Positions 7,815 to 32,781 of a stretch of DNA of 64,000 nucleotides are shown in pieces. The DNA lies in the NCBI GenBank assembly GCA_965200715.1, contig OZ241374.1:2917031-2981030 (forward strand), given 5' to 3'. Source of the stretch: Arenicellales bacterium (lineage in GTDB: Bacteria > Pseudomonadota > Gammaproteobacteria > Arenicellales > Poriferihabitantaceae). Each line of letters starts with the position of its first letter. Position 1 is the first letter of the stretch. The notes under the pieces were generated by a model. That model searched no databases. It saw nothing but the letters and a program-made list of their open reading frames with translations, and was not told the DNA's origin. Both the position numbers and the translations under genes were made by a program.

Positions 7815-7824
7815 GTTAATTGCT

Positions 7825-15038: not shown

Positions 15039-15064
15039 CAGAGGTCGTTTCTGCCGCGGTGATG
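15039..15064. repeat. Invariant 26-nt porin 5' element
   Basis: CAGAGGTCGTTTCTGCCGCGGTGATG, with the left arm as GACAGA. Confidence 0.9.
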
Positions 15065-15997: not shown

Positions 15998-16026
15998 CCC
16001 CATATTGATTTAGAGGAAATTAAACA

Positions 16027-17262: not shown

Positions 17263-17335
17263 CTATACCGAAACCCCAAACCCATACGGCGGATCGGTTT
17301 GATCCCGTCAAGCAACTATCCCATAAGAAGAAGAA

Positions 17336-18556
17336 ATGAAACCGAAATGCTCAATAGCGATCCTGTTGACCACAATGCTAGCCTTAACAGGTTGCGGGGG
17401 TGGCGGATCGGGCAATGCTGAGCCAGGCAATGAAGCAGCACCACTAGCAAGCGTTTCCAGTACCGGAATACACCACTACGGCATTGATTCGGATGCCCGC
17501 CGGGACTACCGGCGATCCATGTATGATGACTGCGTAGCAGAGAGAGGCCGGTCGCGCTGTTCCCTATCCGGTCGTGGATGGTTTTACCGCTGGAACCAAT
17601 TGCCGAAAGTACATATTTCCTCAAACACTACACAGGAGGGAATATGGGCAATTCGGAGGACAATCGGCATCCTCAACCGTTCTCTACCTGAGGAATACCG
17701 GCTTAGTTACGAAACAACCAACCGGACATTTTCTGGTGTGGATAGGGATGACAGGACATCCCGTGTCGAGTCTCTTGTGCCGAGGGGCGTGATTCATGCG
17801 GAGATCTACCCCTATGATGACCCAGAGTTTAGCGGATGGGCTTGGACCGATGGCGAACGGGGCTATGCCCTTGGCGATGAGACCGATCTTGACCTATCCG
17901 ATCCCTTGGACATGTCCTTTGCGGTGGAGACCATGGCACATGAGTTCCTGCATGCTCTCGGGCTGGTCGCACACCCACAGGAAATCCACACGTCCATCAT
18001 GTCCTATCGCTATCACTCTGAAGGAGAAATTGAGAGAGTGCCGCTGATTGATGTTGCCATGCTCCATGACCTATACGGCTGGGGATTCTGGGATGGGGAA
18101 ATGAAAAGGGTTACCGAGCATGAGGGTGGAGTGCATTTCGGGGTAGATAACCTGCATCGAGGGACTGCCGTCATTCCATGGGTGGATGCAAGATACCTAG
18201 CGGCTCCAAGACCGAATGAATTATCAGATAGTGCATCATACGATGGAACCTTAGTCGGATATGCTACGAATGGAACTGCCCTATATGGTGACTCAGATCT
18301 CAGCATTAACTTTAATCGAGGAACGGGAGTGGCCCGTTTTCACCGGATTACAGACTGGGATGGCAATTCTTGGAATCGAAGTGGCTATCGCTATGATCTC
18401 AGTCTATATGGCCATTACTTCGATTCGACCATAGATTCACAGGATCAAGATGGTATTCTAGATGTGGTCGGGGCGTTCTATGGGTTTGAGGCAGAAACCG
18501 CAGCAGGTACACTTCAAAGACCGGAGATTACCGCCGCTTTTGGTGCGGTTAAGTAA
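17336..18556 (+). CDS. Zinc-metalloprotease lipoprotein (metzincin/serralysin-like) with TbpB-like C-terminal barrel
   Basis: 406 aa. Lipobox LALTGCGGGGS, HEFLHALGLVAHPQEIHTSIMSY (HExxH..G...H plus an SxMSY Met-turn), C-terminal ASYDGTLVGYA..DLSINFN..GVARF..VVGAFYG..AAFGAVK. Confidence 0.85.
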   Translation: MKPKCSIAILLTTMLALTGCGGGGSGNAEPGNEAAPLASVSSTGIHHYGIDSDARRDYRRSMYDDCVAERGRSRCSLSGRGWFYRWNQLPKVHISSNTTQEGIWAIRRTIGILNRSLPEEYRLSYETTNRTFSGVDRDDRTSRVESLVPRGVIHAEIYPYDDPEFSGWAWTDGERGYALGDETDLDLSDPLDMSFAVETMAHEFLHALGLVAHPQEIHTSIMSYRYHSEGEIERVPLIDVAMLHDLYGWGFWDGEMKRVTEHEGGVHFGVDNLHRGTAVIPWVDARYLAAPRPNELSDSASYDGTLVGYATNGTALYGDSDLSINFNRGTGVARFHRITDWDGNSWNRSGYRYDLSLYGHYFDSTIDSQDQDGILDVVGAFYGFEAETAAGTLQRPEITAAFGAVK

Positions 18557-19161: not shown

Positions 19162-20971
19162 TTATGGTTGCTCAACGGCTCCGAATGCGCCGCGATGTCG
19201 TATGTAGGTAAATCCTTCAGGATCAGGATCGGCTGTACTATCATTTTCGGTGGCGGTATTGAGGGTTGTATCAGTGCCATTTGGCTGATAGTCAAAATCA
19301 CCGACAATCCATCGCCCTTGATGTACAAACCTTGCGTTCCAGTCACCAGAATCTTCACTTTGACCATTGTTTATATTGCCAGAGGCCATATAGTTACTGA
19401 TAGCACCTTCCTCAAAGGCTATGGTGTCAGTTGGAATCGGATCATCGTGCCTTCCTCTACTTATGCTTCCGTTAAGAGTATTGTTATCAAAATCAGCAGT
19501 CAATGTTATCTCTCCAATCCAAGGTAAATATTGAGGATCATATACAGGATTTGTGATATCTCCGTCACTTTCTGTAATACCCACAACATCACCTCTATAG
19601 CTTGCCGTTCCAGTTTTCGCACCGAGATACTCCCTTCCGGTTGCGGGTGCGGGGTCATTACCACCAATAGCCGCACCCCCCTCAATAAGTACAGGAACGG
19701 AATCGGTATTGCCAACTATTATCCCACTATCCGAAACCCAGGCCCCAAAACCCATGCGGTCATCGTCATCAAAATCGTTGGCAGCATCATCTTTTGACTT
19801 GCCATATACGGCTATGGCGTATATATTATTACCAGTGTTCTCCGCTCCTCTACCCGGTGCTACAGAAGTCTCGCTAGTTACGCTAATCCAGCCGTGAGTA
19901 TCAACTACCGTAACTTCATGACTTGCACCGCCAAGACCAGAGGATATGTCGATTGTCCATCGGCCCATAGTACCATCACCATTATCGAAAGTAGCATCAT
20001 ACTCAATCTCGGTTGTAGGTCGGTCTGCTAGCACTTCGGGCTGTTCTGGCATCCCAGGAACGTTAGCCCTTATCGCATCGAGACGGGCGGTATAACTCAA
20101 AATAGTACCATCTCCGACCAGCAATTCGTGAGCTTCGGTGTTATCCACACCATCCGCCATGAGTGCTGTTAGTAGCGCTGCATGAAATTCTTCAATATCC
20201 GTAATATCAGTAGTCATGGGAGTTGCTCCTGACTGTTCCTGAACTTCCAGCGCAGTTTTCAGATTCATAACCGCGGTGTTCAATGTCATCTGAGGTGGAA
20301 ACGCAAGCCTTATCGCAGCGAGACGCTGGACATAAGTCATACTAGCCGGAGTACCCGCATCAGCAGCAGTATCTCCGTTCAGCAGATTTTGGGCGGTAGT
20401 ATGCTCTGGGCTACTATCTACACCAGTATCCAGATTGCCTAAGAGGTTTCGTAACATTGTACGTGCAGATACAATGTCCCCAATTTCCTTAGCTGTTGGA
20501 ATTCCATCTTCACCTTCGTCCAATGCCGTCATGAGTGCTGCGGCTGCTTTTCCCAGATCCGCCGCGCTCGTTTTAGCTGGAGGCGGTGGTGGCGGTGGTG
20601 GAGGCCCACCATTACTAGCGACCACCTGATTATCCTCACCCTTTATCTTCTCGAGGCGGCCTTCATACCCATTCAATAGCATGGTGATCTGATCGGTTTT
20701 GGTATCTACTCCGTCCGCCGCATCCTCGATGGCCTTGTCAAGTTCCCCTTTCGCTGTTTCAATGTCCGCAATCTGCTCAGACGTGGGGGTTGTTGCAGCT
20801 TCGGCCTTCTTCAATGCGGTATCTAGTTTCATGACCGCATCATCCAACTTCGTTTGGGCGGCTTGCCTAACTGATTCAGTATCGTCAAGGGTGCCGCCCC
20901 CCCCCCCCTCCGCAACCTGCCAGGGCTAACATGGCCGCCAGTAGTGCGGTTATCAAAATATTCTGTTTCAT
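19162..20971 (-). CDS. Surface lipoprotein with TbpB-like C-terminus; out of frame at a poly-G tract (putative phase-OFF)
   Basis: ATG at 20971 gives MKQNILITALLAAMLALAGCGGGGG, then 12 G put the reading frame into a TGA. The 561-aa body (19162..20847) is in the frame that 11 or 14 G would restore. C-terminus GTASYRGDVVGITE..LTADFDNNTLNGSI..GDWNARF..RHRGAFGAVE. Confidence 0.8.
20897..20908. repeat. Homopolymeric tract, 12 C on plus (12 G in the gene sense)
   Basis: Counted directly: gccg + cccccccccccc + tccgc. It lies 3 codons after the lipobox Cys. Confidence 0.95.
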
Positions 20972-21047
20972 TATTGATTCCCCCTTAAAGGTTCTAGGAA
21001 TGCCCAGCTTTTCATGCTGGTTCCGGTTTCAAACTGATAGAAAAAAA

Positions 21048-21067
21048 CCGGGGTTGTTACGCCCCGG
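21048..21067 (-). terminator. Rho-independent terminator (conserved family)
   Basis: Minus strand: ACCGGGGCGTAACAACCCCGG followed by T7, 17 nt after the stop at 21084. Confidence 0.85.
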
Positions 21068-21083
21068 TTTGTGTTAAGCGTTA

Positions 21084-22439
21084 TTACTTGGTAGCTCCGA
21101 ATGCGCCGATTATTTCGGCTCGGTTGTTGGTTATATCGAATTGACCGGTTACATGGTTTGGAACTTGATCATCACCTACATCATGAAAATGAACATTACC
21201 CCAAGTTCCAGATTCTGGATCGTTATCGCCTATTTTCCATTCGGCAATGGCAGTTATACCGTCATAATTAGTTAAAGCACTTATGTTTTGTGTGCCGCCA
21301 CTACCATCAGATTCTGTAGAGGTTAATGAGATGGACCAACCCGCTTTTTCCTTGCCATCAACCATGAATTTGTCAATCGTGCCTTTTAGCGTATTCACAG
21401 TAGCATCGAAATCAGCCGTAAGCTTCGCATTGGCAGTGAAATGACCGGATTCATGCGCCTTTGGTACTTCACTGTATATGGCATACTTGCCCGCCGCTCC
21501 GCCTTCGTAGGTTGCTGTTCCGGTAGTAGCTGCTACTTCGCTAAATCTCCTTGCATCAGCATCAGCAGCAGCAGTTCCAGTAGTTCCAGAAAATACGTTT
21601 ACTTGGTATTTATCACCAGTTGCACCCGTATCAAGCCACCATCCGTAATAGGCATATACATTTTTCGGATCGGTTACTTTGCTATCTGCTGAAGTGGGGG
21701 TAAACGTCCAAGTCCCAGTCAACGCTCTTTTTTCATCGGCATGTTTTGTAATAAAGCAGGTGCTGACAGTGCCTGTACAATCATATTTGCCCGAAACACC
21801 ATAATATGACCCTTGAATAGTAAATCCACCACGTATCAAATCTGCTGCTTTGAAAGCATGCCTGCCTGAAGTGCCGGTTATACTGGGAATGACTATCCGG
21901 TCTGTTGGAGCGGCACCAGAAAAATCAAAACTAAGGACGCTACCAGCCGCAACTCCTGTTACCCCGGGGTCTTCAGTTCTTGCGGAAAAATCAGTAGGAA
22001 ATTCTGTACTAAACTTCATTCCTTCCCCTTTTGCATTGGCCCGCCAGTAGACGCGCGCTTCCTTCTTGTCCTTTTTGAAATAGCCGCCAGTCCATCCGTT
22101 GTTAGCTGATACGCTATCGGTTGTTTTGGCCAAGTCATCAGTACCTTGTTCAACCTTTGTTCCATCAAATGTAATCGTGCTAGGTGCAGGTGTACCAATC
22201 GCAGCGTGCAGTTTCTTGGCCATGGTCTCGGCATCCTTACCTTGTTCTTTGGCTAAATCATCTTGCGCTTTTTCTAGATCTTCCTTAAGTTCCTTATTCT
22301 CATCTTCAAGCTCACTAATCTTTTCTTTGTCTGGATCAGTCGGCGGATCCTGCTGCACCGTGCTGCTGCTCCCGCCCCCGCAACCTGCGAGTGCCAGCAT
22401 ACCGGCTAATAGGGCCGCTATGTATATTTTCTGTTTCAT
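21084..22439 (-). CDS. Surface lipoprotein with TbpB-like C-terminal barrel
   Basis: 451 aa. MKQKIYIAALLAGMLALAGCGGGSS, SYYGVSGKYDCTG..WTFTP..YYGWWL handle-like motif, GTATYEGGAAGKYA..GHFTANAKLTADF..LKGTIDKF..GTWGNVHF..AEIIGAFGATK. Confidence 0.85.
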   Translation of the reverse strand: MKQKIYIAALLAGMLALAGCGGGSSSTVQQDPPTDPDKEKISELEDENKELKEDLEKAQDDLAKEQGKDAETMAKKLHAAIGTPAPSTITFDGTKVEQGTDDLAKTTDSVSANNGWTGGYFKKDKKEARVYWRANAKGEGMKFSTEFPTDFSARTEDPGVTGVAAGSVLSFDFSGAAPTDRIVIPSITGTSGRHAFKAADLIRGGFTIQGSYYGVSGKYDCTGTVSTCFITKHADEKRALTGTWTFTPTSADSKVTDPKNVYAYYGWWLDTGATGDKYQVNVFSGTTGTAAADADARRFSEVAATTGTATYEGGAAGKYAIYSEVPKAHESGHFTANAKLTADFDATVNTLKGTIDKFMVDGKEKAGWSISLTSTESDGSGGTQNISALTNYDGITAIAEWKIGDNDPESGTWGNVHFHDVGDDQVPNHVTGQFDITNNRAEIIGAFGATK

Positions 22440-22468
22440 TGTTTATTTCCTCTTAAATTGAATCAGGC

Positions 22469-23383
22469 TTAGAAGATGTACCGAAGTCCGATACGGTGGA
22501 TTGCCTCGTAGCTTTCCCTGAGTGCTGCATCATCGTCATCGTCGTTGACCTGTCCTTCATACCAGATTGCTAGGCCGCCGCCCATGTTGTGGAATACACC
22601 GAATGTGGTTGCGGTTGGAGTAGCCTCTCCTCCATCGTCTTCTTGGCCGTAACCAAAATGAACGGAAGTACCATCGGCAACATCTGCACCTAACCACAAA
22701 GTGGTGTAGTCAGTATCGCTAGTAGTTTTGCCCGCCGCATCGGTTTTTTCATTGTTTGTCCATCCCAGAGCACCCCAGAATTGGCCCAGACTAACCTTTC
22801 CAGAAACACCAATCCAATCGCTATCTTTGCTTTCATGCTCGGACATTTCAGCAGCAAATCCTAGTTCAATGTTGTCCGTCAATGACGCTTTGAGGCCAAT
22901 CGCTCCACCATTGCCTGCTGGACCCTGGATATCTGTATCGCTATCGTTGGCTTTCAGGTCAACTTGCAAACTCAAAGGACCAACAGCATTTGCGTACTTT
23001 ATTGTGTTGGAATGCCTAGCTCCGGTAGTTCCACCGATTCCGCCTTCCCAGATGCTCTGATCCATGTGCAACGATCCCTTGAACGCTGCTCCCTGACTCC
23101 CGATCGTAACCTTGCCGAAGCCGCCGGAAAGCCCGACAAAACCAAGACGGGTTGTGTTCTTTCCTGTGGACTGATCGGCAGCAACCTGAATTTCAAGTTG
23201 AGCGTGCCCAACCAGACCGTTTCCAAGATCGCTATTGGCCTTGAATCCAAACCGTGAGCCAAGACTGTCTACATCAACTGTTGACTCTTTGTCACCTTCA
23301 TAGCTCTTGCTAACTAGCGCATTATGAACATGACCGTAAACCGTCAGTTCGCTTTCCGCTTGTACACCAAGCGGGATCATCAC
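22469..23383 (-). CDS. Gram-negative porin family beta-barrel; 5' start unresolved
   Basis: LTVYGHVHNALV, GSRFGFKANSDLGNGLVGHAQLE, NTIKYANAVGPLSLQVDLKA, C-terminal IGLRYIF. Confidence 0.85.
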   Translation of the reverse strand: MMIPLGVQAESELTVYGHVHNALVSKSYEGDKESTVDVDSLGSRFGFKANSDLGNGLVGHAQLEIQVAADQSTGKNTTRLGFVGLSGGFGKVTIGSQGAAFKGSLHMDQSIWEGGIGGTTGARHSNTIKYANAVGPLSLQVDLKANDSDTDIQGPAGNGGAIGLKASLTDNIELGFAAEMSEHESKDSDWIGVSGKVSLGQFWGALGWTNNEKTDAAGKTTSDTDYTTLWLGADVADGTSVHFGYGQEDDGGEATPTATTFGVFHNMGGGLAIWYEGQVNDDDDDAALRESYEAIHRIGLRYIF

Positions 23384-23387
23384 CGCG

Positions 23388-23413
23388 GCAGAAACGACCT
23401 CTGCAACTAATGA
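23388..23413. repeat. Invariant 26-nt porin 5' element (reverse orientation)
   Basis: CATCACCGCGGCAGAAACGACCTCTG. Confidence 0.9.
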
Positions 23414-23850
23414 TCTAACCCAATAACCGCGAGAAAAGTCCCATAGGATTTACGAATTGAGTTAGTGGGTGAGTGCGAGGAATTGGGAATATGTGTTCAG
23501 GCAAGCGACTTGAATGAACTTTGATCAGTGTTTGAGGAAGTAATGATATTTCGTAATAGTCGATTTAGTTGAAGATATGGAACTTGATGAATTTATAGCC
23601 ACTAAAGGCAACATTAGGTAACCAATTATTCCGTGGGAATTGAAGGTGAGGTTTAATTCAAGTGATAGAAAGTGTTTGCATAAAGAACTTCGCAACAGAC
23701 GTTACTACTTAAAATCAAAGTAACGATCGAAAGGTATAGGATAAAAGGAAGATTGACAATCTTTACCAGTTAGCTTGGCGGCACCACTCAATTTGTTATA
23801 AGAGTGCTTGAGAAAATCATGATTTTCTATTCACGTATATATGCAAAAAA

Positions 23851-24264
23851 CTAATCCTTTCTGTTTGCAATCCTTAGGATCATATTCAGTAGTGGATATA
23901 TTTCAGCTAGTTTCCACGAAGTTTCCTCCACATCTTTGCCTTTTCCCGATTTTCCGAATGCTCCAGCAAGCACAAATACGGTTATTACCGTAAATGAAAG
24001 TATCGTGGATACTGCAAGAAGAACGTTCATTCCTGTATCAAAATTCACATCCGCACAGACCAGCGTATAAACGGAAAGACCAAAACTTGCAATCATTGCT
24101 AAAGATCCCACCAAAAAACCAGACCATCTAATCCTGCTGTGATGCCGTTCAATCCCCTTTAACGTCTGCTCCCCTGATTCTTGATCAAGGTCTTCGGGAT
24201 CAGGATCAGGCAGCGGCAATTTCCCTTCTTCTTTCACGGTTCCTGAATCTTCTGATTTTTCCAC
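23851..24264 (-). CDS. Small membrane protein (2-3 predicted TM helices), candidate toxin partner of the Panacea-domain gene
   Basis: 137-aa ORF with an acidic N-terminus. Hydrophobic stretches are WSGFLVGSLAMIASFGLSVYTLV and MNVLLAVSTILSFTVITVFVLAGAF. It overlaps the 3' end of 24206..24700, so a later Met start is possible. Confidence 0.5.
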   Translation of the reverse strand: MEKSEDSGTVKEEGKLPLPDPDPEDLDQESGEQTLKGIERHHSRIRWSGFLVGSLAMIASFGLSVYTLVCADVNFDTGMNVLLAVSTILSFTVITVFVLAGAFGKSGKGKDVEETSWKLAEIYPLLNMILRIANRKD

Positions 24265-24700
24265 TGAAATGCTCTTCTATCAGTTCGTTTGGAATGATTA
24301 TGCCATGTATCCCTGGCTTATAGCATGTATGCCAAGGGCCTCCTTCAATATGCGTTAGCCTAGAAAGCCGAGCATCATTCATATTTTCATAGGTAATGTG
24401 AACCCTTCGAATTAATATGTGAACATAATCTTCTGTTTCAGGCTCATGTGGAAGTTCTATCCTTGGCAGATTGTATATTCCATGAGGCCTGAATGAAAAA
24501 TATATCGATGGAATGACAGGACCATATCTCCATGCCTGCACATAGTCATTTACAAGAGGTTCCTTATGCAAAGCCAGATTCCATCCGTGCGCCATGTATG
24601 CAAGCTTTAGAAGTCTCATAATAGAAACTTCTCGCCCCATTTCATTTGCCGTATCTATTATAACATTGGCAACATGACGACTGTCGTAGGGATTGGACAT
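24206..24700 (-). CDS. Panacea (DUF4065/SocA-like) domain protein, putative antitoxin
   Basis: SIMRLLKLAYMAHGWNLALHKEPLVNDYVQAWRYGPVIPSIY matches the KLxKLLYxAxGWxLA...AWxYGPVxPxxY core of DUF4065. I trimmed the start to MSNPYD (ATG at 24700); the ORF-track ORF extends to 24874. Confidence 0.65.
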   Translation of the reverse strand: MSNPYDSRHVANVIIDTANEMGREVSIMRLLKLAYMAHGWNLALHKEPLVNDYVQAWRYGPVIPSIYFSFRPHGIYNLPRIELPHEPETEDYVHILIRRVHITYENMNDARLSRLTHIEGGPWHTCYKPGIHGIIIPNELIEEHFSGKIRRFRNRERRREIAAA

Positions 24701-25049
24701 GATACAGTAACACTTGCGTTGCGAATCGACTTGCGTAACGAGTCTATCATATGTTATTTTCACTCGCAAACTTTTTCGCAAACAGCAAAAACGGGTGTAC
24801 GATATTTTTTTGAGAAAGTCATAATTTTTGTTGATACAGTTCCTGCCAACCTTGTAGCTCCCAAAAGTTGTCAAGGTGATTACTTTGGACAGTCTATTGC
24901 ATGCTACCCAGTTTGAGTTGGTTGCCTATGAGCGATTGCATGTGCCCTCAAGGATTCCGAATGGCACCTAAATCCCCTATGTTCTGAACTCTGAGTAGTT
25001 CATACTAATATCCACCATTCTAGGACTTGCCTTCGTACAAGACAAGTTA

Positions 25050-25149
25050 TGTCTCTTCAGTCTAAATCCTGTTATCAGGTTCTTTAGTTCCACATCTTTA
25101 CCCGGCTCTGCAATCCGATAACTTAACATCCTTCAAATCCCTCTTGTGG
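25050..25149. repeat. X flank module, inverted, abutting porin element
   Basis: The reverse complement reads CAAGAGGGATTTGAAGGATGTTAAG...GATGTGGAACTAAAGAACCTGATAACAGGATTTAG, homologous to 13701-13815. Confidence 0.7.
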
Positions 25150-26234
25150 CAGAGGTCGTTTCTGCCGCGGTGATGATCCCGCTTGGAGTTCAAGCGGATG
25201 TGACTGTTTATGGACGTATAAACAATGCAATTGAGCTTGATGATAAGGGAATGCAGCCAAACAAAGGGAAAACTGCATTGGAAGATAATGACTCAACGAC
25301 CGATGTAAGTACCATTGGATCGCGATTTGGCGTCAAAGCGAATTCCGATCTGGGCAATGGTCTGACTGCTCATGGTCATTATGAATTTGCGACCAATACC
25401 GATGACGCTGCGGGTGGAATCACGGCTACCCGTATTGCAACTGCTGGGCTTTCTGGCGGTTTCGGCAGGATTGACGTGGGCAATCAGTGGGGAGCTTTCT
25501 ACAATACGGTTGGCGTTGATATTGATCCGACCTGGTGGATTGGTCCGATTGCAGGTGCCACGCCTGGTCGCTCACCCAACACCATCAAGTATTCAAATTC
25601 GGTCGGTCCGTTGGCTTTGGAAGCGGATTTGCGATTAAGCAATTCTGCCGAAAATGTAAACGCTAAAGGCACCCCGGTGCTTTCCGGTTCGGGGGGTAGT
25701 ATTGGTGTTCGAGTTGCCGCTACTGACAATCTCACGCTTGCCGCCGCCTTTGATTTGGACGACCAGACAGATGTGGTGGTTACTCCTAAGATGGATGCAA
25801 AGTCGGGCGTTAATAAAGCGGGTACCGCACTTGCAGTCATCCCAGCAACGAAAGACGTTATGGGTCTTGAACATACACGTGCTGGCGTTTCTGGGAAGGT
25901 AACCCTTGGTCAGTTCTGGGGTGCTCTGGGATGGAGCAGCCATGAAGCCGAAAACGCAGCTGGGGTCACTCAGGCTGATAAAGAATTCGTTGCGGGCTAT
26001 GTGGGCATGAGTTTTAGCGACAGTAGTTCGGGCTGGATTGGCTATTCGCAGTCTGAAGAAGATAAGCCGAACACCCCGGAGCCAAGCAAGATTACGGCTG
26101 GCTTATATCACAACCTAGGCGGTGGTTTGCAGTTCTGGTATGAGGGTGCATCCGTAGATCCAGATGAAACGATTAATGGCCGTGAGGCAGACAACCATGT
26201 GACTCATTACATCGGCATTCGCTACGACTTCTAA
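25146..26234 (+). CDS. Gram-negative porin family beta-barrel; only a GTG start with an atypical signal peptide
   Basis: MAEVVSAAVMIPLGVQA|DVTVYGRINNAIE, GSRFGVKANSDLGNGLTAHGHYEF, NTIKYSNSVGPLALEADLRL, C-terminal IGIRYDF. There is no SD and no basic n-region. Confidence 0.85.
   Translation: MAEVVSAAVMIPLGVQADVTVYGRINNAIELDDKGMQPNKGKTALEDNDSTTDVSTIGSRFGVKANSDLGNGLTAHGHYEFATNTDDAAGGITATRIATAGLSGGFGRIDVGNQWGAFYNTVGVDIDPTWWIGPIAGATPGRSPNTIKYSNSVGPLALEADLRLSNSAENVNAKGTPVLSGSGGSIGVRVAATDNLTLAAAFDLDDQTDVVVTPKMDAKSGVNKAGTALAVIPATKDVMGLEHTRAGVSGKVTLGQFWGALGWSSHEAENAAGVTQADKEFVAGYVGMSFSDSSSGWIGYSQSEEDKPNTPEPSKITAGLYHNLGGGLQFWYEGASVDPDETINGREADNHVTHYIGIRYDF
25150..25175. repeat. Invariant 26-nt porin 5' element
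   Basis: CAGAGGTCGTTTCTGCCGCGGTGATG, preceded by GG, which gives a perfect GGCAGA/TCTGCC palindrome. Confidence 0.9.
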
Positions 26235-26260
26235 CCCGTATTGATTAAGAGGAATAAACA

Positions 26261-27769
26261 ATGAAACAGAAAATATACATAGCGGCACTATTGGCCGGTA
26301 TGCTGGCACTCGCAGGATGTGGGGGTGGAAGTAGCACAGTGGAGGTAACGCCTGCTACAGTAACGGCCGCGCAAACAGCGATAACAGCAGCCAATACTGC
26401 TGTTGATGCTCTAACCGCAACATCAGATCAAGTTGACGTTAATGCGGCAGATGGTTTGATAACAGCCGCAGAAGAAGCAATCGCAAAAGCCCCGGAAGGA
26501 GAACGAGCGACCTTAACTGCAATGCTTGCTGATTCCAATCGACAAATTGCCATTCATAATGATCGATTCACGGATGACGGCATAACCCCAGCTCAATTAG
26601 CCGAACTTTGCAAGGCTGATGGGGTCACTGTTAATGATGCTGGAGATGGTTGCATAGCAGATACAAGCATTGCAGATCAAACAAAGAAAGAAGCGGACTA
26701 TCTTGCTATTTTCAATGCCTTGAATGGACCTATTATTGGAGCGGCAACGGCCACTCAAACAAGTTTTACTAGTAGTTGGGATGGAAGTACAGCAGTTTCT
26801 TACACCGAGGCAGATGCCGAAGATCAAGATAACCACAAATCTGCATCGATTTCAATGCAGGGAGCTAAATTTAGTGAATTAACTACTGGATCAGAAGGCA
26901 ATGGAGTAGAAAGGAACAGTGATGGTGATGATGATATATTAGAGCTTACGGATGGCGCTGATAAAGATTACGTTATGTTTTCCGGGATATCAACCGGCCA
27001 ACAGGAAACGCATGAAAAGAAAAACATAGTAAAGGTTGGTGGCACTGATATGATAGCTTTTGTAGTTTCAGGATCATATCGCGGTGTTACGGGAACATAT
27101 CAATGTACTGGTGCAGACTGCACAACAAGCTTAGCCGGTGATGCTGCTGGCAATTTAGTGTTTGAAGGCACATGGCAGTTTAAAGCAACGGATGAGGACG
27201 CTCGGATAACCGATCAGGATGTTGTTACCTATGGCTGGTGGACTAATACAGCTTCTGCGCCGGGCAGTGTTCTACAAGCCGGATTATTTTCCGATAGGGA
27301 AAAAACAGGGCATGTCGATGCTCGCTACGCTGGCGGTGGTTCGGCAACCTACAAGGGTGAAGCTCTTGGTCAGTATGTGATGAGCGCGGATAATTTTGGA
27401 GCATTTACTGCGGATGCTACCCTAACCGCAGACTTCACAGGTACAAATACTTTGGAAGGTATGATAAACGGCTTTAAGGATGCTGATGGTGGAGACTTGA
27501 CGGGTTGGGAAGTTAAACTGCATAAAACCAACATAGCTGTTAATGGAACATTTTCCGGTACACAGACAGGAGCTGAAAATGCAAGGCAAGCAAGATGGAA
27601 CATCGGCGATAAAAAGGGAGCAGCAGGAAATTGGCAGGGGGCCCTATATGGCCCAGAAGGCACTAGTACTAATAAATATCCTACTCACGCCGCAGGAGAA
27701 TTTAGTGCACAGCATGGGCCTACTGGGCGCATGATCGGCGCATTTGGGGCCGAACTGGAAAGTAACTAA
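26261..27769 (+). CDS. Surface lipoprotein with TbpB-like C-terminal barrel
   Basis: 502 aa with the same lipobox. SYRGVTGTYQCTGADC..WQFKA..TYGWW, GSATYKGEALGQYV..FTADATLTADF..LEGMINGF..GNWQGALYGPEG..GRMIGAFGAE. Starts 26 nt after the porin stop. Confidence 0.85.
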   Translation: MKQKIYIAALLAGMLALAGCGGGSSTVEVTPATVTAAQTAITAANTAVDALTATSDQVDVNAADGLITAAEEAIAKAPEGERATLTAMLADSNRQIAIHNDRFTDDGITPAQLAELCKADGVTVNDAGDGCIADTSIADQTKKEADYLAIFNALNGPIIGAATATQTSFTSSWDGSTAVSYTEADAEDQDNHKSASISMQGAKFSELTTGSEGNGVERNSDGDDDILELTDGADKDYVMFSGISTGQQETHEKKNIVKVGGTDMIAFVVSGSYRGVTGTYQCTGADCTTSLAGDAAGNLVFEGTWQFKATDEDARITDQDVVTYGWWTNTASAPGSVLQAGLFSDREKTGHVDARYAGGGSATYKGEALGQYVMSADNFGAFTADATLTADFTGTNTLEGMINGFKDADGGDLTGWEVKLHKTNIAVNGTFSGTQTGAENARQARWNIGDKKGAAGNWQGALYGPEGTSTNKYPTHAAGEFSAQHGPTGRMIGAFGAELESN

Positions 27770-27782
27770 TAAACCAACATAA

Positions 27783-27808
27783 ACCGGGGCGTAACAACCC
27801 CGGTTTTT
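27783..27808 (+). terminator. Rho-independent terminator (conserved family)
   Basis: ACCGGGGCGTAACAACCCCGG followed by T6. Confidence 0.85.
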
Positions 27809-27889
27809 TCTATCTGTTGGGAACGGTAACCCGCATGGAAAGCTGGCCATTCCCAGATCATGAACTAGAACCTGTAAGAGGGAATCAAC

Positions 27890-29709
27890 AATGAAACAGA
27901 ACATTTTACTATCCGCCCTGTTGTCGACCATGCTGGTGATTGCAGGTTGCGGTGGAGGCAGCTCCTCGGATGGCGGTAAGATTGAAGATGGGCGGTAAGA
28001 CCCTGAGTGAAATCTACCAGTCTGCAATCACCGATGGGGAGGAACACACGTTTGATATGGTATTGTCCGCATCGGTTCTTCAGAATCAAGATTCTGACAA
28101 TCCTTCAACTTCGATTCCTGAAAACAACGAATTATCAGTTTCACAAATCGTGAGGAATGAGGATGGTGGTTATGATGTCACCTACCGCATTGATGATTCT
28201 TCTGAGACTGTAACTTTCTTGCCTAGTGATTGTAACAATCAAGATGAAGAATGCGTTTTATCGAATGAAGAAGGTCAACGAGAATTTGATATTTGGGCAA
28301 TGCCTAGTACGGAAGAAGGTACAGGTCAACTCGGCCCCGCCGCAAATCTTGTCTATCATAATATCAAACATTTTCAAGTTCATGGAACAACTTCTAGCGA
28401 TGAAAGAATTCTTCACAAGCAAATATTTGTCTTTGGCGTAACGACTCCAGAGTCAAATCAACCCAAAACGGGAACGGGAACCTACTACGGTTGGTTTTTC
28501 GGTTATGCGAATCGAATGACAGAGGCAGGTAATGCCTTCCGGCAACGAATTATGGCAGACATGCAGTTGGTAGCGAATTTTGACATGAACACCATCAATG
28601 GGGATTTGACTGGGGTTGAAGGAACACCACCAGGAGGAAATAACAATTCATGGGAAGATTGGCAGGAGGAAAGTCGTTTTGAAATCACCGGTACTGGAGT
28701 GAATTCAGCGGGGCAGTTCACGGCTACCGTAACCGGGATGGATGCTTCTACTGCGGATGACGTTGAAAGTGTACGGGGATTCATGGGTCAACTCACAGCG
28801 CAATTATTTGGCCCGAATGCCGAGGAAATTGGCGGGGTATTGAGTGCATCTCGTGATTTGGACGGTGATGATAATGACCTTGCTTTGTATGGTTATGTTT
28901 CGAGTACCAAATTCGGCCCTGCCAAGATACTTAGTTCCGAAGGTGTATCCGTTGGAGTCAAAAGAAATTTTGAGGAGAGTAAGACCGAACTACAGGAACA
29001 AGGCGAGGTCAAAATTATGAGAGATGCCGGTGATAGTGGTTGGGTGCTCACTACTGATGCTCGTACAGTCGAATTCGAAGACGAAGATTACCGGTATGGA
29101 GAGGGAAATTATTTTCGAGCTAGTGCTGCAGATGACGCGCAAGATGGCGATTATTTTTGGACGAATACTAATGGTTTTTTCGTTACCCCTGACTATGATT
29201 ACTTCGACATCAAGGGCTGGGCAAATAATCATGACAATCCAGGGATTTGGGTAAACAGTTTTATCATTCATGGTGATCGGACACCCATCTCATCCCTGCC
29301 TTTTTCAACCGCGACCTATCATGGGCGGATGCACGGTCGAGAGTTTCCATCTGATGATGCAATTAGTTGGATATCCGAAGCAAGGCGTTATCAAGGTGAT
29401 TTGACTCTGACCGCAGATTTTGCAAATACGAGTGTGATGGGTGAGATAACGAATCTAGAAACTCGAGTAGGAAATAGCGGTAGTTATAGTGACATTCAAG
29501 GAGGTGCTCGTTTCAATGCATCGATCACTGGTCACAATTTCACGGCTGATGATTTTAGTGGAACAGGGGATATATCGAATCTACAAAATGGCAATGTCTA
29601 CGGTTCGTTTTTTGGTCCTACAGCCCAGGAAGCCGGTGGGGTTTTTGATGCGGACCTTGGAAGCGACGTTGTCGTTGGTTATTTCGGTGCAACTCAGGAG
29701 AATGAATAG
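27890..29709 (+). pseudogene. Bilobed TbpB-like surface lipoprotein, frameshifted just after the lipobox
   Basis: ATG at 27890 gives MKQNILLSALLSTMLVIAGCGGGSSSDGGKIEDGR, then TAA at 27995. The 589-aa body (ORF 27940..29709) is in another frame. There are two barrel-like lobes, each ending in a FGP..AEE.GG motif (QLFGPNAEEIGGVL and SFFGPTAQEAGGVF..VVGYFGA). Confidence 0.8.
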
Positions 29710-29771
29710 ATTGATCAGTCATCGTGAATTCCATCTTTGGTAGATTCGGTGCAGCACGATGACCAATCCAA

Positions 29772-29797
29772 CCGGGGTGTAACAACCTCGGTTTTTT
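29772..29797 (+). terminator. Terminator hairpin (conserved family, one stem mismatch)
   Basis: CCGGGGTGTAACAACCTCGG followed by T6. Confidence 0.7.
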
Positions 29798-29829
29798 ATT
29801 TCAAATACAATAAATTCAGTCAAAAGAAA

Positions 29830-31049
29830 ATGGAACAGAAACACACAATAGTGATCCTATTAGTCTTAATGCTTACCCTTGTAGGCTGTGGGGGCGGTTC
29901 TATCGGTATTGACAGCTCTATCCGGTGAACCAAACCGGACGCGAGCAAGGCGCGGTTTCATGGTCTGAGGCACACCACAAAGGCATTGGTCCTGATGCCC
30001 GTCAAGATTACCGTCAAGCGATGTATGAGGATTGCACGCTTGACCGTGAGGACTGTTCCTTATCTGGAGATGGATGGTTTCATGCTTGGAACCAATTACC
30101 CGAAGTTCATGTATCCTCAAATAGCACACAACAGGAAGTCTGGGCAATCCGGAGGGCAATCGGCATACTCAACCGATCCCTTCCCGTGGAATATCGGCAT
30201 ACCTATCAAATAACCCGCCGAACCTTTTCCGGCGTGGGTAGGGATGATCAGGTAGAGCGTTCCAAGTCTCTTGTACCGGAGGGTGTGATTCATGTAGAGA
30301 TTTATCCGTATGACGATCCAGAATCCGGCGGGGTAGCATGGACGAATGGTGAAAGGGGTTATGCGCTTGGAGATCGGGTCAATTATGATCTTTCTACCCC
30401 TCATGGCATGAGGGCTTTGATCGATACCATGGTGCATGAATTCCTTCATGCTTTCGGCCTTAGCGGGCATCCACACGCAGTGCATACCTCGATCATGTCT
30501 TATCGTCATCACAGGGAAGGAGAGCTAGACAACGTACCCCTGTATTGATGTGGCCATGCTCTATGACCTCTATGAATGGGGCTATTGGGATACCGACATG
30601 AAAAGGGTAGCAGATCATGCGGGCGGGGTACATTTTGGAGTACACAGTTTGCACCAGGGAACGGCCGTCATTCCGTGGGTAGATGCCGGACACATAGCAC
30701 CCCGAGATTGGATGAGCTGTCAGGCCGAGCATCGTATAGCGGCACCCTGATTGGATATGCTGATGACGAACCTGTACATGGTGACGCAGATCTCAGCATT
30801 AACTTTAATCGAGGAACGGGAGAGGCCCGTTTTCACCGGATTGCGGACTGGGATGGCAATTCTTGGAATCGAAGTGGCTATCGCTATGATCTCGGCTTAT
30901 ATGGCCATTACTTCGATTCGACTATAGATTCACAGGATCAAGATGGTATTCCAGATGTGGTCGGGGCGTTCTATGGGTTTGAGGCGGAAACCGCAGCCGG
31001 TACACTTCAGAGGCCGGAGATTACCGCCGCTTTCGGTGCGGTTAAGTAA
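29830..31049 (+). pseudogene. Zinc-metalloprotease lipoprotein paralog, multiply frameshifted
   Basis: Pieces at 29830..29928 (MEQKHTIVILLVLMLTLVGCGGGS), 29925..30548 (HEFLHAFGLSGHPHAVHTSIMSY), 30550..30750 and 30576..31049 (..AAFGAVK) lie in different frames. Collinear with <1..1146. Confidence 0.85.
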
Positions 31050-31185
31050 GGATTCGTTTTTTCAGTTTTCAGCTTAGTTGTAATTCAGTTTTTCAGTTCT
31101 TCGCAACGATCCTGAAACACCTTTTTAGCAGCTTATAACAAATTGGTTTCAACGCTGATTACCCTTCCAAGCAGATAGAAAAAAA

Positions 31186-31205
31186 CCGGGGTTGTTACGC
31201 CCCGG
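31186..31205 (-). terminator. Rho-independent terminator (conserved family)
   Basis: Minus strand: CCGGGGCGTAACAACCCCGG followed by T7, downstream of the stop at 31227. It could also serve the convergent plus-strand gene. Confidence 0.8.
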
Positions 31206-31226
31206 TTTGTATAGTTTGGTTATTGG

Positions 31227-32750
31227 TTATGGTGCAGCAGTATGATCCGCGCCGAAAGCTCCGGCCATCCTGCCATTTAAGCCCAAATGCGCGTTAAACG
31301 TCCCGGTCACAATATCCGGTACGCCATCAGTTTCAGATCCTTCATTCCACATATTACCCGACCATGAACCGGCAGCCGTGCCATCTGCTTCTCCGACCTT
31401 CCATGTGGTAGTGCCAAGAGTAGTTGCACCAATTACTCCAGTACCGTTTATCGTCGCTTTATTCAAATCCACCAACCAGTCTCCGTCAATGTCCGCGCCT
31501 TTACCATCCTTGAAGTTGCTCACCGTGCCGGAGATCATATCAGTCACGACAGGGGTAGCAGTGCTATCCCCAAACTTAGCCGTGAGTTCTACGCTCGCGG
31601 TGAAGTGTCCAGCTTCGTTCCTTCCGCCGGTACTACTGGACAAGGCATACTTGCCAGCTGCTCCACCTCGGTAGGTTGCACTGCCGGATTCTAGTCTAGT
31701 ATTGAGAGAAGATGGTACAGCCGCAGCCGCACTCCTACGGTTTATATCGAATACTCCAACGATCCAGTTATCATCATCATCCTTATTCAGCCACCACCCG
31801 TAGGAGGCAAGCGGAGTAGCTTCGCCCATGGTAATCCGGTCATCTGGGTTGTTGGGAGCGAAACGCCATGCAGCATTTGTCTCAAACGTTTGTTTGTTTT
31901 CGCCTGCGTGATTTACCCTGCAAGCCGCACCCTCGGCACCACTACAATAAAACGTTCCTCGGACTCCATGATAGGAACCAGCTTCGGAAATATATGCAGC
32001 AGTAGAACCAGTAGGCTTTGTATAGTCCCTGCTTCCTGCGGTCTGGGTAAAGCTGTCAATGTTTATGGTAGCGACCTCACTGGCAGCAAAGGTAATCCCT
32101 GAACGACCTATATTGTAGTCGTCATTGTCTAATAAAATAAGGGTGTACCTATGTGTATGCCGCATAGATTCATCAGTTTCTTCAGGGTTAGGAGCGCCAA
32201 CTTTATCTGTTTCTGTCGAAGCGAACATCAGCCCTTCCGTTCCCGGACTCACCTTCGTATAGACATGGGCTTCGCGGTTGACTTTCTTGTCAGTTCCTGT
32301 GGTAGTGGTGTACTGAGCACCGGTCCAGCCCTCGAGAGCAGAAACGGTAGCATCGGTTTTTTCCAAGTCAATATCTGGAGATGTTGCAATTCTCAAATCA
32401 CCATTACTTTGGAAGGTAACATCAGTTCTATCCAAACCGTTCGTTCCATTACCAAATCCATTCGTAGGACTAAGTGCAGCGTGCAGACTTGCGGCATCAG
32501 CCTTTGCATCCGTTGCTTTGTCTTCCTCTGCTATCTTTTCTCCCTCATCAGCTCTTATCTGTTCTTCGGTGAGGCATTTCCCTCCACTATAAATGGTCGC
32601 ATCATCGCAATCGGCTTGACTGAGTGGCGGATCGTTTTTATCGTCACCTCCACCACCTCCGTCACCTGAACCGGAAGAACTCCCGCCCCCGCATCCTGCG
32701 AGTGCCAGCATACCGGCTAATAGGGCCGCTATGTATATTTTCTGTTTCAT
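31227..32750 (-). CDS. Surface lipoprotein with TbpB-like C-terminal barrel
   Basis: 507 aa with the same lipobox. SYHGVRGTFYCSGAEG..WRFAPN..SYGWWL, GSATYRGGAAGKYA..GHFTASVELTAKF..ISGTVSNF..GSWSGNMW..GRMAGAFGAD. Confidence 0.85.
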   Translation of the reverse strand: MKQKIYIAALLAGMLALAGCGGGSSSGSGDGGGGGDDKNDPPLSQADCDDATIYSGGKCLTEEQIRADEGEKIAEEDKATDAKADAASLHAALSPTNGFGNGTNGLDRTDVTFQSNGDLRIATSPDIDLEKTDATVSALEGWTGAQYTTTTGTDKKVNREAHVYTKVSPGTEGLMFASTETDKVGAPNPEETDESMRHTHRYTLILLDNDDYNIGRSGITFAASEVATINIDSFTQTAGSRDYTKPTGSTAAYISEAGSYHGVRGTFYCSGAEGAACRVNHAGENKQTFETNAAWRFAPNNPDDRITMGEATPLASYGWWLNKDDDDNWIVGVFDINRRSAAAAVPSSLNTRLESGSATYRGGAAGKYALSSSTGGRNEAGHFTASVELTAKFGDSTATPVVTDMISGTVSNFKDGKGADIDGDWLVDLNKATINGTGVIGATTLGTTTWKVGEADGTAAGSWSGNMWNEGSETDGVPDIVTGTFNAHLGLNGRMAGAFGADHTAAP

Positions 32751-32781
32751 TGTTTATTCCTCTTAAATATTGAGATCAGCC

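Follow-up and report, generated by a model that had tools for sequence, protein, structure and literature searches.

Exchange of porin–lipoprotein operons at a conserved 26-nucleotide element as a probable means of surface variation in an Arenicellales bacterium

The window analysed here is a 64,000-nucleotide stretch of contig OZ241374.1 (assembly GCA_965200715.1) from an Arenicellales bacterium. An exact search of the window for the 26-mer CAGAGGTCGTTTCTGCCGCGGTGATG returned six copies with 0 mismatches, in agreement with the six substitution-free sites claimed in a first-pass annotation, and 0 copies were expected in shuffled sequences. One of the claimed positions, 23388-23413(-), was off by 10 and is corrected here to 23378-23403(-). 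Each of the six copies marks the 5' edge of an ORF matching the Porin_4/Porin_1 profile, for which the six scores were 81–105 bits compared to a cutoff of 27, and the copies alternate in orientation along the window (-,+,-,+,-,+). A seventh, partial copy at 13670-13690(+), with no porin after it, was absent from the earlier annotation. The copies and the porin bodies are as follows:

3757-4749 (-), porin 1 body, intact ORF; Porin_4 E=1e-22; pN/pS 0.24 relative to contig L008
4750-4775 (-), element copy 1 (26-mer), exact match, 5' edge of porin 1
13670-13690 (+), seventh, partial copy GGCAGAGGTCGTTTCTGCCGC, 21 nt; flank X to its left, non-porin sequence to its right
15039-15064 (+), element copy 2, exact match, 5' edge of porin 2
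15065-15997 (+), porin 2 body; Porin_4 E=1e-29
22469-23377 (-), porin 3 body; Porin_4 E=5e-26; identical in L005
23378-23403 (-), element copy 3, exact match, 5' edge of porin 3
25150-25175 (+), element copy 4, the copy under study, exact match, 5' edge of porin 4; GTG at 25146
25176-26234 (+), porin 4 body; Porin_4 E=4e-23; pN/pS 0.16 relative to L009
32782-33759 (-), porin 5 body; Porin_4 E=3e-24
33760-33785 (-), element copy 5, exact match, 5' edge of porin 5; GTG at 33789
54882-54907 (+), element copy 6, exact match, 5' edge of porin 6
54908-55921 (+), porin 6 body; Porin_4 E=2e-29; 84% identical to P0126/P0031

Each unit is a complete operon consisting of the element, a porin, one to three lipoproteins and a terminator. 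The units are arranged in convergent pairs between inverted element copies, and these pairs alternate with flank segments that face outward. A second conserved block, in the gene after the porin, comprises a Shine-Dalgarno (SD) sequence, an ATG and a lipoprotein signal peptide; seven further copies of this block were found elsewhere in the window. The longer repeats of the window are an inverted repeat of 1266 nt with 94% identity and the 13 copies of this 85-nt lipoprotein signal block. The features involved are:

4776-13669 (no strand), flank segment I (flank 1 to flank X), both ends facing outward to an element copy
23404-25149 (no strand), flank segment II (flank 3 to flank 4), containing a SocA/Panacea-like gene
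33786-54881 (no strand), flank segment III (flank 5 to flank 6), 21 kb
26253-26335 (+), second conserved block, SD, ATG and lipoprotein signal peptide MKQKIYIAALLAGMLALAGCGGG, in the gene after porin 4
3657-3746 (-), 16019-16101 (+), 22368-22457 (-), 32679-32768 (-) and 55941-56023 (+), equivalent lipoprotein signal blocks
31147-31210 (no strand), shared terminator-like hairpin, midpoint of a convergent porin segment
1137-1200, 21009-21072 and 63488-63551, the same terminator-like hairpin

Flank segment III carries toxin-antitoxin genes, insertion sequences, a trio of tyrosine recombinases and a high-GC mobile block, and a block of flank segment I (9215-13587) is missing in other strains. The abrupt loss of paralog homology that had been reported upstream of the element holds in part, as the flanks are not wholly unrelated and form families: flank 1 resembles flank 3, and flanks 4, 5 and 6 resemble one another. 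For the flank 4/5/6 family, an alignment to the leader at the 5' end of a complete gene copy was possible; this copy is described below.

The porin bodies are both diverged and intact, as had been claimed. Amino acid identity among them ranged from 41 to 82% and mean per-codon nucleotide identity was 0.57; all six ORFs (311–361 codons) were open despite 18–59% protein divergence. The bodies are under purifying selection, with 10 synonymous and 7 non-synonymous differences in the pooled between-strain comparisons (pN/pS ~0.22, binomial P=0.0024). Every window porin lacks an SD sequence, an ATG and the first seven codons of the signal peptide, and otherwise keeps its full 3' end and its own downstream genes. 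As first described, four of the six copies had no ATG, GTG or TTG between the upstream stop codon and the element, and a GTG was the sole start available to the other two (25146 and 33789). Full-length relatives begin MKKSLVAA(A/V)VSAAVM, and many other relatives have also been called as truncated proteins. Copy 2 has an A-run (ATGAAAATCC), but slippage there was rejected, as the ATG at that position belongs to a separate 33-codon ORF that is split by the element. We also rejected an intron or trans-splicing, because the sequences upstream of the six copies are not conserved and the window gave no Rfam match.

The element is read in the frame given by the first-pass annotation, EVVSAAVM(I/L)P(L/I)G(A/V)QA. 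Its 24 in-frame nucleotides (26 in total) were invariant in all six porin genes, and the longest invariant run elsewhere was 5 nt; the synonymous positions of its eight codons are all fixed, and the codons just after it vary. Six-bp inverted arms, GGCAGA/TCTGCC, had been described as part of the element. These arms, which surround the 7-nt GGTCGTT, were found in three of the seven copies (at 25148, at 33787 and in the partial copy), and they are shortened to 4–5 bp in the rest, where the left arm is GCAGA (5 bp) or ACAGA (4 bp plus a mismatch). In a sister species the element has three changed positions, all within the 5 nt between the arms (CAGAGG-CAGTG-TCTGCC...), and this version is common to all 12 copies on contigs L002-L004 and L015, complete copies included. 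Thus, in the two species compared, the spacer is invariant within each (TCGTT in the window species and CAGTG in the sister) and the arms and right side are unchanged. Scanning species-representative genomes with the element 21-mer gave one chance match, in a histidine-kinase gene (L001); JGI metagenomes scanned for CAGAGG-N5-TCTGCCGCGGTGATG also gave one, in a dehydrogenase gene (L014), and the scan of viral contigs gave no match.

There are no complete copies in the window itself. The search for a copy of the expression type was positive in another contig of the same species, L013, where TTGAGGAAAAACTA-ATG-AAA-AAA-TCC-TTA-GTG-GCT-GCG is followed by GTCGTTTCTGCCGCGGTGATG. The region upstream of this copy is AT-rich, GAGG and ATG-AAA-AAA are both present, and the right-hand 22 nt of the element are retained. 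The sister species also has a complete copy with SD and ATG (L002-L004), which bears one and the same porin in three strains and sits at a structural position equivalent to that of the other flanks. A complete copy in L016 looks frameshifted. The complete leader reads MKKSLVAAVVSAAVM, and the putatively silent flanks have a Glu codon at its second Ala position. Upstream of the complete copies the promoter scan gave no sigma-70 consensus match, nor did it detect a promoter facing the porins in flanks 4 and 5; a search with the leader peptide (40 aa) returned no matches.

The same porin body was found with and without the complete leader. P0126, with the complete leader, and P0031, which is start-less, are 100% identical over 328 aa. 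The start codon and the Ala/Glu position are the only differences between P0130, with the complete leader, and P0127 (MAEVV...), and both of these identical bodies are recorded on one contig of 112,890 nt. In addition, P0125 is porin 1 placed on a GTG flank, and three porin types were found with the complete leader.

Alternative junctions at the element, one of the checks suggested at the outset, were found between strains. In same-species contigs from other assemblies the flanks were 99.4–99.6% identical to those of the window and were joined to different porin operons, and in every case flank or operon homology ended exactly at the element edge. Flank 1 was joined to porin 1 in the window and to porin 3 in L005-L007, where flank 1 is followed by porin 3 and the next gene at 99.4% identity. 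Flank 6 was joined to porin 6 in the window and to porin 1 in L008. Four porins were found behind flank 5 (window, L009, L010 and L011): porin 5 in the window, porin 4 in L009, and the P0054 and P0044 porins. Flank X also had four partners in total, consisting of three different porins in L005, L006 and L011 and the non-porin sequence of the window; in L005 it is joined to the start of porin 6. Porin 1 was seen on three flanks. The L009 arrangement, with porin 4 behind flank 5, corresponds to a simple inversion of 25150-33785. The sister species behaved likewise, as L002 and L003 share 452 nt of a porin at 100% identity and have different flanks. A common short sequence is present at the exchange point of all the alternative genes (six 26-mers and one 21-nt copy), and the exchange boundary was always right of CAGAG; flanks ending CTATGG or CTGCGG recombine too.

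Taken together, the shuffled junctions, the complete copy and the bodies found with either 5' end make it likely that the 26-mer serves as the shared crossover or anchor sequence of a surface-variation DNA rearrangement that re-pairs start-bearing and silent flanks with porin–lipoprotein operons, as judged from sequence comparison. The same observations support the earlier proposal of start-less cassettes that need recombination to be expressed. By such recombination the organism can probably change its porin and its surface lipoproteins. We propose that recombination inside the element, at a point right of CAGAG and within GGTCGTTTCTGCCGC(GGTGATG), would re-pair flanks with operons. Most flanks would carry a decayed leader with no SD or ATG, rendering the porin of that operon untranslatable, and the flank type seen in L013 would be the expression site. 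Joining of this flank to an operon would restore the full signal peptide MKKSLVAAVVSAAVM..., such that only porins linked to the expression site would be made. Switching may be frequent enough to serve phase or antigenic variation, and its main route may be reciprocal inversion, catalysed by a conservative site-specific recombinase whose gene lies elsewhere.

The strongest competing explanation dispenses with a dedicated site or switch. Occasional homologous recombination and gene conversion would act at the most conserved stretches, the perfection of the 26-mer would be a by-product of concerted evolution, and the shuffling would amount to evolutionary scars in an IS-rich genome. Several observations are consistent with this explanation. 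Between-strain homology also breaks at the lipoprotein signal block and inside porins, P0005 and P0122 being a mosaic with break points within the porin; the P0130/P0127 exchange looks duplicative; identity tracts around the element reach 37–49 nt in exchanged pairs; and no recombinase was found in the window or the compared contigs. Moreover, the rearranged contigs represent distinct strains, because they differ by 0.4–0.6% elsewhere in the flanks. Nevertheless, we consider this explanation unlikely. The longer substrates (the 1266-nt inverted repeat and the 85-nt blocks) were available, yet the flank/operon differences all map to the 26-mer, and one partner has merely 21 nt in common. Occasional exchange also does not account for a boundary invariably right of CAGAG, for three between-species changes confined to the spacer and common to all copies, or for six window copies and many relatives that are start-less yet intact and under purifying selection. 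Within the preferred reading of the 26-mer as a crossover sequence, the inverted geometry of the sites suggests site-specific inversion, and we lean slightly toward reciprocal inversion of this kind over RecA-type short-homology recombination or gene conversion.

It was also conceivable that the element works in RNA or translation and that each copy is translated in place with no rearrangement, either through a GGCAGA...TCTGCC hairpin or by unusual initiation at the GTG before GCA-GAG, at a non-canonical codon, or by coupling to a short upstream ORF whose stop is the TGA of GGTGATG. The in-frame GTG (MAEVVSAAVM...) is indeed present in two window copies and in several relatives, the 19-nt palindrome has a folding energy of -8.7 kcal/mol (z = -3.6), and TGATG is a stop/start overlap. 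However, the other four copies have no in-frame start codon of any kind, the GTG is not preceded by an SD sequence, and the ATG start would leave 8 residues before the AQA cleavage site. A Sec signal peptide that contains Glu and lacks a basic residue is expected to support export poorly, and the leader begun at the GTG is of this type. The hairpin itself was inconsistent across copies, being part of the minimum-energy fold in three of six and weak (-3.1 kcal/mol) where the flank ends GA, and an Rfam scan of the window gave no match. As in-place translation also leaves the junction shuffling unexplained, we regard it as very improbable, and the RNA-hairpin alternative raised at the outset is not supported. 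That the six genes are decaying pseudogenes with lost 5' ends, their 26-mer due to chance or recent duplication, is scarcely credible: the region is rich in transposases and rearrangements, one porin in L002 is broken by an insertion sequence and the L016 copy appears frameshifted, but all six ORFs are open and selected at the protein level, an invariant 26-mer beside bodies saturated with change is the opposite of recent duplication, and the sister species shows the same pattern.

With the crossover reading retained, the type of site can be compared with those of known recombinases. A tyrosine-recombinase core usually consists of two inverted arms of 9–13 bp around a 6–8 bp spacer, and such a spacer is expected to be the same within a genome and free to differ between species; this was the pattern found in the two species. 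The element is no more than a candidate recombinase core site: the recombinase was not found, the inverted arms are short (6 bp) and incomplete in most flanks, and the left arm was not kept in all recombining flanks. No recombinase gene adjoins any site in the window or in L002-L017, and scans of the flank-segment ORFs with Pfam, NCBIfam and PADLOC gave no recombinase, returning a TIGR04255-family protein and weak matches. The only tyrosine recombinases of the window are the trio inside the mobile element at 46883-50433. An integrase fragment upstream of the complete copy of the sister species lies in a 4.9-kb island that is absent from another strain. The hix site of Hin/Gin/Din is 26 bp long, with two 12-bp imperfect inverted half-sites and a 2-bp centre. 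The element does not resemble it: by inspection, one half, CAGAGGTCGTTTC, matches the reverse-complemented second half, CATCACCGCGGCA, at 2 of 13 positions.

The partial copy marks one end of a segment that differs from the porin operons:

13691-15038 (+), 1.35-kb segment between two direct core copies, a circular permutation of the locus around 42261-42632
42313-42414 (-), intact paralogue of the 33-codon ORF, matching the core at 17/21 positions

The 33-codon ORF is split such that its 5' half (ATG at 15022) lies left of copy 2 and its 3' half lies right of 13670-13690. The intact paralogue begins TAAGGAGG followed by ATG ATG AAA ATC CTT GGC GAC GGA GGT AGT CTC TGC CAC AAG... Integron cassettes are bounded by recombination sites and require an IntI-type integrase and attI. 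Despite the direct cores and the circular permutation, no integron integrase was found, which speaks against integron-like cassette capture for 13691-15038. A more speculative extension of the model, which we put forward tentatively and hold to be somewhat doubtful, is that a remotely encoded conservative recombinase acts on a ~20-bp asymmetric site lying within signal-peptide codons to drive a shufflon on the scale of the chromosome, with at least seven sites spread across more than 60 kb, bringing whole operons to a single expression site. The same enzyme might insert and excise small circles, in which case the 1.35-kb segment (13670-15064) would be a captured cassette and the system would be both shufflon-like and integron-like.

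If the crossover model is true, a large library of porin–lipoprotein operons is maintained in this uncultured, host-associated gammaproteobacterium, which expresses one of them at a time. One-at-a-time expression by DNA rearrangement is known mainly from pathogens and mycoplasmas, and the only earlier porin case that we traced in the literature is the Dichelobacter Omp1 model. Both phages and host recognition preferentially target porins and TbpB-like surface lipoproteins, and such a system would therefore bear on symbiont persistence. The model would also account for the truncated or odd porin N-termini produced by gene callers and for the breaks of short-read assemblies at these loci. Finally, the short and sharply bounded target sequence provides a means to seek the responsible recombinase.

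The archive cassettes of Neisseria (pilE/pilS), Borrelia (vlsE/vls) and Anaplasma (msp2) are usually truncated at both ends and are copied non-reciprocally. The likeness to such archives, which the first-pass annotation had drawn, holds in that promoter-less and start-less copies would serve one expression site, that conserved anchors flank a variable body, and that some exchange is mosaic or duplicative, the P0005/P0122 mosaic and the identical P0130/P0127 bodies looking like copied segments. In contrast to the archives, the copies described here have full 3' ends with their own downstream genes and terminators, and whole multi-kb operons move with the junction. Because the units are complete operons and their sites alternate in inverted orientation, the nearest models are the inversion systems (Omp1, vsa and vpma) rather than pilS/vls.

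In the shufflon of plasmid R64, Rci acts at sfx sites to swap C-terminal pilV segments within 2 kb of plasmid, with rci alongside. Both systems have many short sites in both orientations, and in both the site is asymmetric, varying on one side but not on the other. Inversion in the shufflon joins different 3' parts to the constant 5' part of a surface protein gene, and the same is proposed for the present system; the sfx sequence, however, is unrelated to the element. The R64 shufflon is among the systems cited in PMC5903667.

The closest precedents are Dichelobacter Omp1 and Mycoplasma vsa/vpma. A multiple site-specific inversion model was proposed for omp1A-D of Dichelobacter nodosus (Moses et al. 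1995, as cited in PMC4196234 and PMC5903667). As it is described there, D. nodosus is likewise a gammaproteobacterium in which linked, structurally variant genes encode a major outer-membrane protein and inversions were proposed to select the expressed gene. By the same description, the Omp1 locus is compact and holds four genes, unlike the present one, in which at least six porin–lipoprotein operons, separated by large non-porin segments, span more than 60 kb; set beside Omp1 as described, our element shows no Hin/Din-type dyad by inspection.

Site-specific inversion also operates in vsa of Mycoplasma pulmonis, vpma of M. agalactiae and vsp of M. bovis (PMC2268961). Those loci are compact and encode lipoproteins of wall-less bacteria, a recombinase gene adjoins each (hvsR, xer1 and mbr), and switching was seen in clones (PMC2268961). 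Unlike them, the present system has no adjoining recombinase, its expression site would supply seven codons, its units are operons, and the evidence comes from comparisons between strains. Nevertheless, in vsa, vpma and vsp silent but otherwise complete genes share one short 5' site (PMC2268961), and the start-less porin genes, presumably silent, do so as well. In those systems inversion places a unique promoter-bearing sequence before one gene at a time, the vsa expression site provides the ribosome-binding site and the 5' part of the coding sequence as well, and the recombination sites are unaltered through the rearrangements (PMC2268961), and in each of these respects the proposed exchange at the 26-mer would be comparable.

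The sequence CAGAGGTCGTTTCTGCCGCGGTGATG occurs six times in the window without a mismatch, where none is expected by chance, and a search allowing up to three mismatches found no further match there. The six substitution-free copies are as the first-pass annotation described them, and so are their coordinates, except that the third lies at 23378-23403 rather than 23388-23413. Each copy stands at the 5' edge of an ORF matching the Gram-negative porin families Porin_4 and Porin_1 (porins 1 to 6). The porin bodies are diverged, as had been noted, with protein identities of 41-82% and a mean per-codon nucleotide identity of 0.57. In a codon alignment of the six porins the invariant run at the element was 24 nt in frame (26 in all), compared with a longest run of 5 nt outside it. 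Every synonymous position is fixed within the element, which codes for EVVSAAVM, whereas the codons that follow it, (I/L)P(L/I)G(A/V)QA, vary freely; constraint at the protein level therefore cannot explain the invariance. The 6-bp arms GGCAGA/TCTGCC, previously assigned to all copies, are complete in three only, and 5 or 4 bases match in the others. We conclude that the element and its arrangement with start-less porin genes are a real feature.

The claim that conventional start codons are missing was also correct. Between the upstream stop and the element, no ATG, GTG or TTG is present in the porin frame of four copies, and the GTG present in two (25146 and 33789) is without a Shine-Dalgarno (SD) sequence. 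Comparison with the full N-termini of relatives indicated that the window copies lack the SD sequence, the ATG and the first seven codons. All six ORFs are intact, being open over 311-361 codons, and the pooled between-strain differences comprised 10 synonymous and 7 non-synonymous changes (pN/pS ~0.22; binomial P=0.0024 versus neutrality). The open frames and this ratio led us to reject decay, and judged from their sequence the start-less genes are not pseudogenes.

Relatives in public data start with MKKSLVAA(A/V)VSAAVM(x)P(x)GAQA, and many others are called with truncated or odd N-termini (MMPVGAQA, MAVSAAVM, MAEVVSAAVM). The first-pass annotation had suggested looking for an expression-type copy, and one was found in L013; this contig belongs to the species of the window and shares its sample of origin with L009, a contig that matches the window at 98-99%. 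This complete copy has an AT-rich upstream region and reads TTGAGGAAAAACTA ATG AAA AAA TCC TTA GTG GCT GCG GTC GTT TCT GCC GCG GTG ATG; it carries the right-hand 22 nt of the element, with GCTGCG in place of the (G/A)CAGAG of start-less copies. In the sister species a complete copy reads ...GTGGCTGCGGCAGTGTCTGCCGCGGTAATG, preceded by GAGGAAAT and ATG, and start-less copies read CAGAGGCAGTGTCTGCCGCGGTGATG. The DNA upstream of copies 4, 5 and 6 (flanks 4 to 6) and comparable flanks in the sister species align with the leader of complete copies but have other bases in place of its SD and ATG. Ala-Ala was present in every complete leader seen, versus Glu in start-less flanks and Met in one start-less flank type of the sister species, which places the exchange point to the right of CAGAG.

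Among members of 90% protein clusters, the same body occurred with a complete and with a start-less 5' end. P0126 (MKKSLVAAVVSAAVMLPIGAQADDGL...) and P0031 (called from MLPIGAQA) are 100% identical over 328 residues, and P0130 (complete leader) and P0127 (MAEVVSAAVM...), both recorded on one 112,890-nt contig, differ only in the start codon and Ala/Glu. P0046 (complete, from L013) and start-less P0050 share ~97% identity outside loop indels. A mosaic pattern is seen in a sister-species pair, complete P0005 and start-less P0122, which are almost the same over residues 37-300 and unlike at both ends.

Contigs from other assemblies were retrieved by looking up window proteins. Each represents a distinct strain, such that the junction evidence is between-strain. 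Flanks 99.4-99.6% identical to those of the window were attached to other porin operons:

Flank 1 (9214 to 4776): porin 1 in the window; porin 3 and its downstream gene in L005-L007.
Flank 5 (higBA side): porin 5 in the window; porin 4 in L009, and two more porins in L010 and L011, which come from one long-read sample.
Flank 6: porin 6 in the window; porin 1 in L008.
Flank X (left of a seventh, partial copy): non-porin DNA in the window; three different porins in L005, L006 and L011.

Homology ended at the left edge of the element each time, and the alternative junctions anticipated there are seen at four flanks. In P0125, porin 1 stands on a GTG-type flank, which brings its flanks to three. 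The L009 arrangement is the product expected from simple inversion of 25150-33785. In the sister species, 452 nt of one porin are 100% identical between L002 and L003 but stand on a different flank in each, and the homology breaks four bases into the element. Judging from contig names, misassembly is an unlikely cause of these junctions because short-read assembly k-mers are longer than the stretch in common (26-49 nt) and several contigs are long-read. Assemblies do break at the element: L005 (1-59) and L006 (1-54), near-identical 7.1-kb contigs from different assemblies, both end ~30 nt beyond it and carry different porins there.

The seventh copy, GGCAGAGGTCGTTTCTGCCGC at 13670-13690(+), was absent from the first-pass annotation and has no porin after it. 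The element divides a 33-codon ORF (MKILSDRGRFCRKRVLKGIKLIDNRIVADQSV) in two. Its 5' half lies left of copy 2 (ATG AAA ATC CTT AGC GA, 15022-15038(+)), its 3' half lies right of the seventh copy (AAG CGG GTT TTG AAG ... TGA, to 13753), and its first 36 nt resemble the porin start minus two A's. An intact paralogue at 42414-42313(-), behind TAAGGAGG with a perfect SD, matches 17 of 21 positions of the core shared by the seventh copy and the porin sites. Given the split halves and the intact paralogue, the 1.35-kb segment between the two direct core copies, 13691-15038, is a circularly permuted version of the paralogous locus. Either integration of a circle at the core or a series of inversions seems to have produced it, and it shows that 21 shared bases are enough for exchange. 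Within the segment, overlapping ORFs at 14397-14867(-) and 13883-14410(-) (156 and 175 aa, no family match) have counterparts beside porin sites in a sister-species flank segment (L003 18164-18790 and 17611-18192; 62% and 72% identity).

A second conserved block of ~85 nt, with SD, ATG and a lipoprotein signal peptide (MKQKIYIAALLAGMLALAGCGGG), lies within ~30 nt after each porin. It has 13 copies in the window, and the mature parts diverge. The repeated and accessory features are:

16019-16101, 17328-17410, 26253-26335, 27883-27965, 29822-29904, 55941-56023, 59783-59865 (+): lipoprotein signal block
1090-1179, 3657-3746, 20900-20989, 22368-22457, 32679-32768, 63040-63129 (-): lipoprotein signal block
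1137-1200, 21009-21072, 31147-31210, 63488-63551: GC hairpin with A- and T-runs, AAAAAAACCGGGGTTGTTACGCCCCGGTTTGT; one in the middle of each convergent porin segment
34383-34978: HigB-like toxin gene (inferred from L010) and HTH gene, flank segment
36337-37641: DUF6088 and AbiEii, flank segment
24206-24874: SocA/Panacea antitoxin domain, flank segment

Between-strain homology also breaks at the lipoprotein block, which may therefore be a second recombination anchor. Some proteins downstream of porins have a TbpB-type barrel domain. The operons form convergent pairs around the shared hairpin, probably a bidirectional terminator, and are bounded by inverted element copies. Three flank segments (4776-13669, 23404-25149 and 33786-54881) alternate with these pairs and hold mobile elements as well as accessory genes, toxin-antitoxin genes among them; in the sister genome the complete copy stands where one such flank would, bordering a convergent pair. 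Inner genes of different porin segments share the inverted repeats 17335-18600/61847-63112 (1266 nt) and 451-1021/29972-30542 (571 nt), both 94% identical, which shows the operons to be mosaics built from shared modules. ORF 59791-61236, which encodes a putative surface lipoprotein, contains a near-tandem duplication (59907-60127/60153-60373; 221 nt, 92% identical, 246-nt period).

Mobile elements are frequent nearby. Three adjacent tyrosine-recombinase genes at 46781-50552 (46883-47872, 47865-48848 and 48772-50433, all -), bracketed by 119-nt inverted repeats in the 'recombinase in trio' layout, sit in a high-GC block (44-54 kb) that also holds rve-type and TniB-like genes; nothing was found to connect this trio with the porin sites. 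Tn5-type transposases (Tnp_DNA_bind, DDE_Tnp_1, Dimer_Tnp_Tn5) are encoded at 51776-54124(-), 56183-58531(-) and, as a shorter relative, 9308-10393(+). Their N-terminal domain matches the Druantia protein DruA, and the same type of protein interrupts a porin in L002. A MITE-like repeat of 130-300 nt (33863-33994, 35706-36003, 44055-44352; also 33993-34120, 54306-54433) recurs in both orientations at 96-99% identity, and L009 lacks a counterpart of window positions 34120-33864, a stretch with one copy.

We consider it quite probable that the element is a crossover or anchor sequence of a system re-pairing start-bearing and silent flanks with porin-lipoprotein operons. Recombination at the element would join a flank of either kind to such an operon. 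The proposal that start-less cassettes need recombination for expression gains support from the complete copy in L013, the re-paired flanks and the bodies with both 5' ends. As to the enzyme, we lean slightly towards a conservative site-specific recombinase that works chiefly through inversion. The alternating inverted geometry of the sites favours it, as do their shortness, sharp bounds and perfect conservation, and the partner with only 21 nt in common. The sister-species element also differs from that of the window by three changes, all within the 5 nt between the arms and common to all copies there, complete ones included. Against such an enzyme, no recombinase gene was found beside any site, and the site has short arms, of which the left can be dispensed with. 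Homologous recombination or gene conversion, suggested by the mosaic and apparently duplicative exchanges, would be at least a second route, although much longer nearby repeats are not among the break points seen. The evidence does not support an RNA hairpin or unusual initiation: the hairpin appears in the minimum-energy fold of only 3/6 copies, Rfam gave no match in the window, a start codon is missing from four copies, and initiation at the ATG would leave eight residues ahead of the cleavage site.

No equivalent came up when the literature was searched by text for shufflons of porins or for a comparable system in symbionts. By gene class the closest system is Omp1 of Dichelobacter nodosus, for which multiple-inversion control was proposed (Moses et al. 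1995, as cited in PMC4196234 and PMC5903667). In their logic, Mycoplasma vsa, vpma and vsp come closest: inversions at short 5' sites put silent genes behind either a unique promoter or a promoter with RBS and 5' coding sequence, and a tyrosine recombinase gene lies beside these loci (PMC2268961). Single features of the window system are also found in the R64 shufflon and in the pilS, vls and msp2 archives. Unlike known systems, its units are whole porin-lipoprotein operons, its array exceeds 60 kb with large segments in between, and its site lies inside signal-peptide codons, only seven codons being supplied. Moreover, no recombinase is adjacent, and reciprocal and copy-like exchanges seem to occur together.
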